Source: Escherichia coli
GTDB lineage: Bacteria; Pseudomonadota; Gammaproteobacteria; Enterobacterales; Enterobacteriaceae
NCBI RefSeq assembly: GCF_041248615.1
Contig: NZ_CP158426.1
Length of the DNA: 64,000 nucleotides
Reading direction: 5' to 3' (one strand)
A program made the translations under genes and the position numbers. The notes beneath the pieces are model-generated. The model made no database searches, was not told where the DNA came from, and saw only the letters and a list, made by a program, of their open reading frames with translations. This document shows, one piece after another, positions 17,201-25,171 of this stretch. The first letter of the stretch is position 1. Each line of letters starts with the position of its first letter.

Positions 17201-18454
17201 GTGGAAGTAAAAATTGAGCAATTTCGAAATAATAGCTGTAATTTTATTTTTTTATTGTATTTAATCGGTTTGTTGTTTGTGCCAATTGATCTTAATATCA
17301 CCACTAAAATAATTAATGCGACAGGTGCATTTTCTCTTTTCTTATTAATTGTAAATAAAAAGCACAATTATAATAAAAATGTCATTATATTAATTCTTGG
17401 TTTACTTCTTTTGGGTGCAATGAACCTTATATGGTATGAATTTTATAAAACAGAAGATGTAGTATATAGAAATGCTTATCGAGGCTACCTTGAGTCTGGA
17501 AAACTATTAGTATTTAGCTCGTTGACATTTTTATTACTAAGTAAAAATAAATTCAGGCAAAATGAAAAACTACATTTTATTTCAGCTATCTTAGTTCAAA
17601 TAATCATGCTATGTAGAGCATATTATCAAGGGATATATTTGCATGCAGACCGCATTCCCCTCTCCGCCATGAATGGGAATATTGGTCAGATGGGGGCAGC
17701 GACTATTGCGGCTTATGTGATTACATTTACAACTTTATATTCTTCAATTGTATTCATAAAAATGAAATCGAAATATAAATGGTTTCTATTTTATGCTAAC
17801 TTTGCTTTAAGCTTTGCAGCAGTAATGATGACAGGAACGCGTGCGGCAATTTTCACATTCCCACTTATGATTATGGTCATATTATTTCTTCAGCATCGTG
17901 ATCAAAAAGTGTTTTTATTTAAAGGATTGAGTGGTGTTTTTATATTGCTACTTGCTTGTGGTTTGATATTTAATAAGGAAATTGATAGGCGAATTAATTC
18001 ATTAAAAGCTGATGTTATTTCATATGCTACAAAAAATAACAGTCAATCCTCGGTCGGAGCACGTTTTGCAATGGTTAATGCAGGAATTAAAGGAAGTCCT
18101 GATGGTTTTAATTGGCAATCTCTTGAGCAGCGTGCTGAAAAGATAAAAGCATTAAGTGCAGAAAATAATATTTATAGTGGAGCTTTATTATTCCTTGATG
18201 TACATATGCATAACGAAATTGTGGAATCTCTTTCCACGAAAGGAAAAATTGGTCTTCTTGTTCTTATTATGTTCTATGTTGCAATGATCTATTACTGTAT
18301 ACGAGAGAAAAAATATATACTCTTGGTTTTCCCTGCTTCTATTATGTTATTTGGCATTAGTGATGTCATTACACATGCTAAACCAATACCGGCATCGTGG
18401 ATTGTGTGCCTCTTCCTGTCTATATCGTTTTTGAGTAAAAATGAACCACAATAA
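17201..18454 (+). CDS. waaL: O-antigen ligase
   Basis: 417-aa polytopic membrane protein at the end of the waaQ operon; GTG start uncertain. Confidence 0.75.
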   Translation: MEVKIEQFRNNSCNFIFLLYLIGLLFVPIDLNITTKIINATGAFSLFLLIVNKKHNYNKNVIILILGLLLLGAMNLIWYEFYKTEDVVYRNAYRGYLESGKLLVFSSLTFLLLSKNKFRQNEKLHFISAILVQIIMLCRAYYQGIYLHADRIPLSAMNGNIGQMGAATIAAYVITFTTLYSSIVFIKMKSKYKWFLFYANFALSFAAVMMTGTRAAIFTFPLMIMVILFLQHRDQKVFLFKGLSGVFILLLACGLIFNKEIDRRINSLKADVISYATKNNSQSSVGARFAMVNAGIKGSPDGFNWQSLEQRAEKIKALSAENNIYSGALLFLDVHMHNEIVESLSTKGKIGLLVLIMFYVAMIYYCIREKKYILLVFPASIMLFGISDVITHAKPIPASWIVCLFLSISFLSKNEPQ

Positions 18455-22872: not shown

Positions 22873-23898
22873 ATGAAAGCGTTATCCAAACTGAAAGCGG
22901 AAGAGGGCATCTGGATGACCGACGTTCCTGTACCGGAACTCGGGCATAACGATCTGCTGATTAAAATCCGTAAAACAGCCATCTGCGGGACTGACGTTCA
23001 CATCTATAACTGGGATGAGTGGTCGCAAAAAACCATCCCGGTGCCGATGGTCGTGGGCCATGAATATGTCGGTGAAGTGGTAGGTATTGGTCAGGAAGTG
23101 AAAGGCTTCAAGATTGGCGATCGCGTTTCTGGCGAAGGCCATATCACCTGCGGTCACTGTCGCAACTGTCGTGGCGGTCGTACCCATCTGTGCCGCAACA
23201 CGATCGGCGTCGGCGTTAACCGTCCGGGCTGCTTCGCCGAGTATCTGGTGATTCCGGCGTTCAACGCTTTCAAAATCCCCGACAATATCTCCGATGATCT
23301 GGCTTCCATTTTTGATCCCTTCGGTAACGCCGTGCATACCGCGCTGTCGTTCGATCTGGTGGGTGAAGATGTGCTGGTCTCTGGTGCAGGCCCGATTGGT
23401 ATTATGGCGGCGGCGGTGGCGAAACACGTTGGTGCACGTAACGTGGTGATTACTGATGTTAACGAATACCGCCTTGAGTTGGCGCGTAAAATGGGTATCA
23501 CCCGTGCGGTTAACGTCGCTAAAGAGAACCTCAATGATGTGATGGCAGAACTGGGCATGACCGAAGGCTTTGATGTCGGTCTGGAAATGTCCGGTGCGCC
23601 GCCAGCGTTTCGTACCATGCTCGACACCATGAACCACGGCGGTCGTATTGCGATGCTGGGTATTCCACCGTCTGATATGTCTATCGACTGGACCAAAGTG
23701 ATCTTTAAAGGCTTGTTCATTAAAGGTATTTACGGTCGTGAGATGTTTGAAACCTGGTACAAGATGGCGGCGCTGATTCAGTCTGGCCTCGATCTTTCGC
23801 CGATCATTACCCATCGTTTCTCTATCGATGATTTCCAGAAGGGCTTTGACGCCATGCGTTCGGGCCAGTCCGGGAAAGTTATCCTGAGCTGGGATTAA
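22873..23898 (+). CDS. tdh: L-threonine 3-dehydrogenase
   Basis: 341-aa zinc alcohol-dehydrogenase-family protein; kbl-tdh operon. Confidence 0.95.
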
Positions 23899-23907
23899 CA
23901 CAAACAA

Positions 23908-23931
23908 GGGCTGGTATTCCAGCCCTTTTTC
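23908..23931 (+). terminator. Rho-independent terminator of kbl-tdh
   Basis: gggctggtattccagccc followed by ttttt. Confidence 0.8.
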
Positions 23932-24136
23932 CTGAGGATAATCTGTTAAATATGTAAAATGCTGTCAGTAAAATAAAGAATGGGTAATTGCGCTGATCTC
24001 TTATATAGCTGTTCTCATTATCTCTCTACCCTGAAGTGACTCTCTCACCTGTAAAAATAATATCTCACAGGCTTAATAGTTTCTTAATACAAAGCCTGTA
24101 AAACGTCAGGATAACTTCAGAGGTAGTCGGTAATTT

Positions 24137-25171
24137 ATGATGAACAGCACCAATAAACTTAGTGTTATTATCCCGTTATATAATGCGGGCGATGATTTCC
24201 GCACTTGTATGGAATCTTTAATTACGCAAACCTGGACTGCTCTAGAAATCATTATTATTAACGATGGTTCAACGGATAATTCTGTTGAAATAGCAAAGCA
24301 TTACGCAGAAAACTATCCGCACGTTCGTTTGTTGCATCAGGCGAATGCTGGCGCATCGGTGGCGCGTAATCGTGGGATCGAGGTGGCGACGGGCAAATAT
24401 GTCGCTTTTGTCGATGCTGACGATGAGGTCTATCCCACCATATACGAAACGCTGATGACCATGGCGTTAGAGGACGACCTCGACGTGGCGCAGTGCAACG
24501 CTGACTGGTGTTTTCGTGAAACGGGAGAAACCTGGCAATCCATCCCCACCGATCGCCTTCGCTCAACCGGCGTATTAACCGGCCCGGATTGGTTGCGGAT
24601 GGGGCTTTCTTCCCGCCGTTGGACTCACGTTGTCTGGATGGGGGTTTATCGCCGCGATGTTATTGTTAAAAATAACATTAAATTTATTGCCGGATTACAT
24701 CATCAGGATATTGTCTGGACAACAGAATTTATGTTTAATGCGCTGCGTGCGCGATATACCGAGCAATCGTTATATAAATATTATCTGCATAATACGTCAG
24801 TGAGTCGGTTGAATAGACAAGGGAATAAAAACCTTAATTATCAACGTCACTATATTAAAATTACCCGCCTGCTAGAGAAATTAAATCGAAATTATGCCGA
24901 CAAAATTACGATTTATCCGGAATTTCATCAGCAAATAACTTACGAAGCATTGCGTGTTTGCCATGCGGTGCGCAAAGAGCCGGATATTATTACCCGCCAA
25001 CGGATGATTGCCGAGATATTTACTTCTGGTATGTATAAGCGCCTGATTACCAATGTGCGCAGCGTGAAGGTGGGTTATCAGGCGTTACTGTGGTCTTTCC
25101 GCTTATGGCAATGGCGCGACAAAACGCGGTCGCACCATCGCATTACGCGTAGCGCCTTTAATTTACGCTAG
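24137..25171 (+). CDS. waaH: GT2-family LPS glucuronic acid transferase WaaH (YibD)
   Basis: 344 aa; GT2 motifs (VIIPLYNAGDDF, DADDE). Confidence 0.9.
   Translation: MMNSTNKLSVIIPLYNAGDDFRTCMESLITQTWTALEIIIINDGSTDNSVEIAKHYAENYPHVRLLHQANAGASVARNRGIEVATGKYVAFVDADDEVYPTIYETLMTMALEDDLDVAQCNADWCFRETGETWQSIPTDRLRSTGVLTGPDWLRMGLSSRRWTHVVWMGVYRRDVIVKNNIKFIAGLHHQDIVWTTEFMFNALRARYTEQSLYKYYLHNTSVSRLNRQGNKNLNYQRHYIKITRLLEKLNRNYADKITIYPEFHQQITYEALRVCHAVRKEPDIITRQRMIAEIFTSGMYKRLITNVRSVKVGYQALLWSFRLWQWRDKTRSHHRITRSAFNLR

Follow-up and report, generated by a model that had tools for sequence, protein, structure and literature searches.

The lipopolysaccharide (LPS)-modification promoters under PmrA/BasR control, among them arnB/pbgP, eptA/pmrC, and ugd, carry a direct repeat of the CTTAAT-N5-CTTAAT type in place of a –35 element; in Escherichia coli K-12, arnB reads CTTAAG-GTTAA-GTTAAT-N10-TAAAAT. 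Pho-box promoters (pstS, phoA, phoE, and ugpB) likewise have an OmpR-family site of 11-bp repeats, a 10-bp distance to the –10 element and no –35. As a canonical Pho box we took two direct repeats of the CTGTCAT / TGTCA type with an 11-bp period (7 bp plus a 4-bp A/T spacer). The waaH gene (yibD) bears likenesses to both groups. Similar to arnB, eptA, and ugd, its product modifies the LPS core, and both PmrA binding and Fe3+ induction have been published; similar to the Pho-box genes, it is up upon phosphate starvation and down in a ΔphoB mutant. Control of yibD/waaH by BasR/PmrA/QseB and its dependence on PhoB are both already published, and the waaH promoter is in industrial use as a phosphate-depletion switch.

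We analyzed the waaH upstream region within a 64-kb stretch of E. coli DNA (hereafter, the window). Here, a spacer of 238 bp separates tdh from an open reading frame (ORF) of 344 amino acids:

22873-23898, + strand: tdh coding sequence (L-threonine 3-dehydrogenase), the upstream neighbor; from the ORF and RefSeq annotation of the identical locus
23903-23930, + strand: intrinsic-terminator hairpin of tdh, AACAAGGGCTGG / CCAGCCCTTTTT, followed by a T run; from the inverted repeat and a terminator scan
24137-25171, + strand: waaH (yibD) coding sequence, UDP-glucuronate:LPS(HepIII) glycosyltransferase; from the ORF and RefSeq annotation

RefSeq annotation of the downstream ORF agrees with the gene call waaH made in an earlier note on this DNA, and the stretch which that note had singled out is the regulatory spacer of this already-studied promoter. 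The terminator hairpin, which the scan scored on the – strand, recurs in other genera. Over the waaH promoter region, the window is 100% identical to E. coli 2012C-4221 and 95.4% identical to K-12, with 13 substitutions relative to the latter between 23880 and 24160. Twelve of these fall upstream of 24013 (two of them in the coding end of tdh) and one at 24125, leaving 24013-24124 identical in the window and K-12. At the population level, 4140 of the 5410 genomes that match 24040-24110 do so with at least 99% identity, while just 277 of 5426 genomes have a 28-base word in common with the window's allele of 23935-24005, a minority form of what we refer to below as the distal block. A search of 23850-24200 against Rfam returned sub-threshold chance matches only. 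In the cattle isolate E. coli strain 133, waaH is annotated as a frameshifted pseudogene with its promoter intact.

From these and the following data, we consider it likely that the spacer is built of three parts, namely the tdh terminator, a distal block that is not a Pho element, and an activator-dependent core promoter with a BasR box (24049-24104). The features of this core promoter are:

24072-24088, + strand: PmrA/BasR (and QseB) box CTTAAT-AGTTT-CTTAAT, in the –35 region of the waaH promoter
24099-24104, + strand: –10-like hexamer TAAAAC (TAnAAn in the conserved columns), following the BasR box after 10 bp
24067-24074 and 24092-24099, no strand assigned: perfect 8-bp inverted repeat ACAGGCTT / AAGCCTGT, bracketing the BasR box

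The box is the sole exact match to CTTAAT-N5-CTTAAT on either strand of the 64 kb (by our own arithmetic, ~0.008 matches are expected by chance for 12 specified bases). To follow it across relatives, we retrieved 50 loci coding for WaaH relatives; the scan covered the regions upstream of 38 of them. Both hexamers were perfect in 11 of these 38, at –65 to –71 from the ATG, in loci from seven genera (Escherichia, Citrobacter, Salmonella, Leclercia, Cedecea, Enterobacter, and Kosakonia). The 11 boxes have seven different 5-bp spacers between invariant hexamers—a phylogenetic footprint. C. sedlakii has a box with one mismatch and two further taxa have CTTAAG variants; in the same scan, the box was absent from more distant, paralog-like loci of Citrobacter, Pantoea, and Rahnella. 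The stretch 24072-24088 is the one strong conserved signal of the region, a perfect PmrA/BasR box that the earlier note had missed.

Published work on this gene points the same way. The PmrA consensus CTTAA-N5-CTTAA was derived in part from yibD (PMC1525208), which is PmrA-activated in Salmonella (PMC2653508; PMC1525208). Phosphorylated PmrA shifts a 105-bp fragment of the uropathogenic E. coli (UPEC) yibD promoter and phosphorylated QseB does so more weakly, and the Fe3+ surge of yibD is abolished in ΔpmrA and cut fivefold in ΔqseB (PMC5677524). The geometry of the box, 10 bp and –10 hexamer is that of arnB; both waaH hexamers are perfect relative to the consensus, whereas arnB and eptA each deviate. 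At the sequence level, the waaH promoter has every feature expected of a PmrA/BasR-box promoter. Transcription would start near 24110-24111, with both this start and the –10 assignment deduced from the arrangement of the motifs. A promoter scan of 23800-24300 found no pair of sigma-70 –35 and –10 elements, a result that is to be expected of an activator-dependent promoter and hence uninformative.

On the geometry and the published work, phosphorylated BasR, helped by QseB, would bind the two hexamers as a head-to-tail dimer. The CTTAAT-N5-CTTAAT repeat would replace the –35 element 10 bp upstream of the TAAAAC –10, and bound BasR would recruit sigma-70 RNA polymerase as at arnB.

The inverted repeat around the box varies in sequence elsewhere while its arms stay complementary (CAGCCTT/AAGGCTG in two Citrobacter, GTGGCT/AGCCAC in Salmonella). 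Its covariation score of 0.30 compares with 0.09-0.15 for slid controls and was reached in none of 500 shuffles; across genera, only 62.5% of cells pair. RNAalifold returned no consensus structure for 13 orthologous proximal regions, and 24040-24136, folded as a single sequence, showed no unusual stability (z = –0.67). The repeat may serve as a structural element or be bound by a second protein; relatedness of the sequences could also explain it.

The earlier note had proposed Pho-box-like half sites upstream of waaH. We therefore scanned the 238-bp spacer with two PhoB matrices, one from 59 ChIP-seq-derived sites (Fitzgerald et al. 2023; PMC10294691 Table 1) and one from 12 classic Pho boxes (Chekabab et al. 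2014; PMC3978041 Table S4). The p ≤ 1e-4 thresholds were 9.8 bits (ChIP-seq matrix) and 9.5 bits (classic matrix) on a uniform background, and 11.7 and 12.1 bits, respectively, on the spacer's own composition. No 18-mer of the spacer reached p ≤ 1e-4 with either matrix. The best matches were:

24072: best match, ChIP-seq matrix; 6.8 bits, with 97% of real sites scoring higher (leave-one-out)
24050: second match, ChIP-seq matrix; 6.2 bits, with 97% of real sites scoring higher (leave-one-out)
23943, at the start of CTGTTAA: best match, classic matrix; 8.3 bits, with 83% of real sites scoring higher (leave-one-out)

The match at 23943 has p = 1.8e-4 on a uniform background. Given the A+T-rich composition of the spacer, 0.3-0.6 such matches are expected by chance (0.34 for the classic-matrix one). 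An 18-mer starting from CTGTCAG scored –3.1 bits with the ChIP-seq matrix and 2.2 bits with the classic matrix. Nor did 20 related upstream regions contain a canonical Pho box, the best score being 11.9 bits in one Citrobacter. With best scores of 6.8 against 9.8 and 8.3 against 9.5 bits, a canonical Pho box is refuted by the criterion that the earlier note had set.

Spacing and position tell the same story. The TGTNA cores in the proposed upstream half sites lie at 23944, 23953, and 23963, that is, in steps of 9 and 10 bp instead of 11, and ~130-155 bp separate these half sites from the –10-like hexamer downstream (24099-24104, the only conserved one), which places them away from a –35 position; we found no usable –10 at the right distance after them. 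The proximal repeats at 24050, 24061, 24072, and 24083 are in 11-bp phase, with poor cores. The only element with Pho-box-like –35 geometry is 24071-24088, and this is the PmrA/BasR box. The waaH core is TTAA and not GTCA, and no 18-mer has the score of a validated site. As far as can be read from the DNA, the waaH promoter lacks every testable sequence-level hallmark of a canonical Pho box. We also considered an upstream Pho-dependent promoter at a conserved TATATA-like hexamer (24002-24007) and rejected it by eye, because no Pho-like 18-mer ends 10 bp ahead of this hexamer and a –35 at 16-18 bp is likewise missing.

Elsewhere in the window, three of the five strongest PhoB-matrix matches (17369-17386, 17521-17538 on the – strand, and 17752-17769; 15.8, 14.8, and 13.7 bits) are grouped within 400 bp of an ORF of 417 amino acids (17201-18454) that is very rich in A+T and lies ~3.2 kb upstream of kbl. 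Base composition may account for this cluster; alternatively, the matches may be akin to the PhoB sites within genes that Fitzgerald et al. described as transcriptionally inert (PMC10294691). The K-12 PhoB ChIP-seq site between yibT and yibL reads TGTAATAGTTCTGTAACG and its counterpart in the window (43014-43031) reads TGCAATAGTTCTATAACG, with two substitutions relative to K-12, both in TGT cores; by its sequence, the yibT-yibL site of this strain is probably weakened.

The four strings named in the earlier note are all found where it had put them, within the tdh-waaH spacer:

23941-24010, + strand: distal block with CTGTTAA (23943-23949) and CTGTCAG (23962-23968); from a cross-genus alignment
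24048-24056, + strand: CCTGTAAAA copy 1, of which only GTAAAAATAATATCTCA is invariant in eight aligned E. coli sequences
24095-24103, + strand: CCTGTAAAA copy 2, overlapping the –10-like hexamer

They do resemble Pho half sites, and the note was right to call their spacing non-canonical (19, 87, and 47 bp, versus 11 bp in a Pho box). We rejected the CCTGTAAAA repeat as a meaningful element, given that an exact 9-mer direct repeat also arose in 553 of 5000 shuffles (11%) that kept the composition of the spacer, and that copy 1 is polymorphic: it reads CCGGTAAAA in NC101, 1517k, and DFK.1, and CTCGTAAAA in SCPM-O-B-8794. A Pho-like TGTAA half site lies within copy 1 (24050-54). Copy 2 is conserved because of its overlap with the –10, and the match of copy 1 to it, present in some strains only, is coincidental. 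Separately, an imperfect direct repeat CTCTCTACCCTG / CTCTCTCACCTG (24022-24051; 18 bp apart), identical in the window and K-12, sits in a pyrimidine-rich tract directly upstream of the core promoter.

Could PhoB nonetheless induce waaH by way of CTGTTAA and CTGTCAG (23943-23968), as a Pho box with non-canonical spacing? TGTCA is the core PhoB half site and is conserved across several genera as TGTCA[GT], and CTGTTAA coincides with the best classic-matrix match of the spacer. Moreover, the spacer has four CTGT[ACT]A sites, all of them on the + strand, where 0.34 would be expected in 238 bp with both strands counted (window density), an enrichment for a pattern defined post hoc, after the sites had been seen. 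However, the spacings are 9, 10, and 19 bp, and the match is below threshold with both matrices, with 0.34 such matches expected by chance on the spacer's own composition. In addition, five of eight aligned E. coli sequences have CCGTTAA in place of CTGTTAA, turning the T of the TGT core into C, and the strings are ~140-170 bp upstream of the likely start and not at –35. No PhoB ChIP signal was seen here, and a reporter from which the strings had been removed kept its phosphate induction (see below). We regard this explanation as highly improbable, and the truncated reporter already largely refutes it.

The distal block itself has a recognizable cross-genus outline, TGTAAA-N4-TGTCA-N1-TGTCAT-AAAnnnTn-CGTAATTG...TCTTATnnTGCTG, which is kept (23952-24010) in Escherichia, Citrobacter, Salmonella, Kosakonia, Leclercia, Siccibacter, and Silvania; this conservation across genera argues that the block does something. 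Despite this outline, it is highly polymorphic within E. coli, and the allele in the window has lost two GTAA cores of K-12. Its PhoB scores do not exceed 1.4 bits (ChIP-seq matrix) or 8.3 bits (classic matrix). Compared by eye with the consensus sequences of CpxR (GTAAA-N5-GTAAA), ArcA, PhoP, Fur, CRP, and NsrR, the block gave only partial half-site matches. Drawing on EcoCyc, Moreb et al. placed an NsrR site in it (bioRxiv 10.1101/2020.01.26.920280).

The same study supplies the reporter data. Its yibDp, a two-stage autoinduction promoter, is the very same DNA in the K-12 allele, differing from the window's minority allele in the distal block and matching it over the core (24013-24124). The 'full-length' yibDp starts at ~23926 and the 'modified yibDp' at GTGCGTAATTG (~23980), so that the latter is without ~23926-23979; both end at ~24118 (bioRxiv 10.1101/2020.01.26.920280 and its supplement), coordinates that are approximate since the supplement sequences were machine-read with a few letters dropped. 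Among phosphate-depletion promoters, modified yibDp ranked with the tightest and most robust, and the full-length version gave >50% less expression than the modified one in minimal medium, for which the authors blamed the NsrR site or other uncharacterized regulation in the removed segment (bioRxiv 10.1101/2020.01.26.920280). These data come from plasmids in engineered K-12 hosts and not from the chromosome of this strain. As modified yibDp is phosphate-inducible without either upstream half site, the two strings are dispensable for the phosphate response. If anything, the distal block is mildly repressive by these published data. The response to phosphate must then map to ~23980-24118, the proximal ~140 bp, where PhoB dependence would be exerted by weak direct binding or indirectly. 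Bases protected by PhoB could include part of the distal block.

That waaH responds to phosphate limitation through PhoB, as the earlier note had said, is well supported. In EDL933, expression was 81-fold Pi-dependent and 15-fold PhoB-dependent (PMC3978041), and published data have waaH 46-fold up in a pst mutant of APEC. In K-12, ΔphoB lowered waaH 4.3-fold, with substantial residual expression (PMC10294691 Table S1), compared with effects of ~770-fold on pstS and 200-fold on phoA (PMC10294691); the PhoB effect on waaH in K-12 is thus tens to hundreds of times below that on pstS or phoA. Whether PhoB acts directly or indirectly on waaH is contested in the literature.

One explanation for this phosphate response, a serious possibility if somewhat short of an even chance, is that control is indirect only: PhoB would alter another factor or the state of the cell, which acts on the proximal promoter, with no PhoB on this DNA in vivo. 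ChIP-seq and earlier ChIP-chip in K-12 detected no PhoB upstream of waaH, in contrast to the Pho-box promoters, and the ChIP-seq authors concluded that the effect is indirect (PMC10294691). The modest K-12 effect with its high residual expression fits this, as does the lack of a canonical Pho box here and in every scanned ortholog. Iron-uptake genes (entC, fhuA) changed in ΔphoB (PMC10294691), which argues that metal status differs between the strains. Against indirect control, its obvious intermediary finds no support: eptA, basR, pmrD, and qseB were unchanged in ΔphoB (PMC10294691), and we accordingly rejected a route via general BasR activation. The ChIP evidence also has its limits, as its authors conceded that the tagged PhoB was ~8-fold impaired so that weak sites could be missed, and ytfK, with reported footprinted Pho boxes, was likewise ChIP-negative (PMC10294691). 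Finally, in EDL933 PhoB shifts waaH promoter probes in electrophoretic mobility shift assays (EMSA), that is, it binds this promoter in vitro (bioRxiv 10.1101/536201).

The other explanation, which we hold to be possible though not probable, is weak direct control. Phosphorylated PhoB would bind four 11-bp repeats, TGTAAAAATAA / TATCTCACAGG / CTTAATAGTTT / CTTAATACAAA (24050-24093), which end 10 bp upstream of the –10 in the manner of pstS and overlap the BasR box, with an occupancy too low for ChIP-seq to see. Three OmpR-family regulators would then share one composite site. A footprinting study by Yoshida from 2011 reportedly, going by its title, located PhoB sites in the yibD promoter, and the EMSA shift likewise favors contact with the DNA, as does the impairment of the tagged PhoB. 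The site comprises the BasR box and one further feature:

24050-24067, + strand: weak Pho-like 18-mer TGTAAAAATAATATCTCA, 6.2 bits, set 22 bp ahead of the BasR box and in the same phase

These two 18-mers are the two best ChIP-matrix matches of the spacer (6.2 and 6.8 bits), set 22 bp apart and in phase with the –10. Nowhere else in the 64 kb, on either strand, are two matches with 6 bits or more found at a 22-bp distance, nor does the tandem sum reach 13.0 at any other position, and only three of 2000 spacer shuffles reproduced the arrangement. The segment is kept in the phosphate-inducible truncated promoter. The BasR boxes of other LPS-modification genes differ in this respect: compared with the 6.8 bits of the waaH box on the PhoB matrix, arnB has 1.8 and eptA –1.9, and 22 bp upstream, where waaH alone has a second Pho-like 18-mer, they score –21 and –23, respectively. 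Among the BasR promoters compared, only waaH was PhoB-dependent in RNA-seq, eptA being PhoB-independent. However, each 18-mer alone is below threshold, and TGTAAAAATAATATCTCA is without the A at motif position 16 that is invariant in 59 of 59 ChIP sites (–5.9 bits). The tandem test was devised post hoc, and any PmrA box has an 11-bp periodicity anyway. Besides, the upstream 18-mer is conserved in close relatives only, and two independent in vivo studies had no PhoB signal here. On balance, we judge weak direct binding and indirect control to be about equally likely. The more specific proposition that waaH is a direct, low-affinity PhoB target by way of the BasR/QseB composite site at 24050-24093 strikes us as rather unlikely.

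Were this proposition true, one short promoter would integrate phosphate, iron/zinc, and QseBC signals via three paralogous response regulators, and the conflict of EMSA and footprint with ChIP would reflect weak occupancy and not indirect control. The BasR-box core promoter that we favor is nothing new in kind. The analysis does narrow the question, in that the Pho-like half sites further upstream need no longer be considered and the contested PhoB input is confined to ~140 bp that also carry the BasR/QseB box. This BasR box bears a closer likeness to a Pho site than do the boxes of arnB and eptA, and it lies upstream of a gene whose product puts glucuronic acid onto the LPS inner core.
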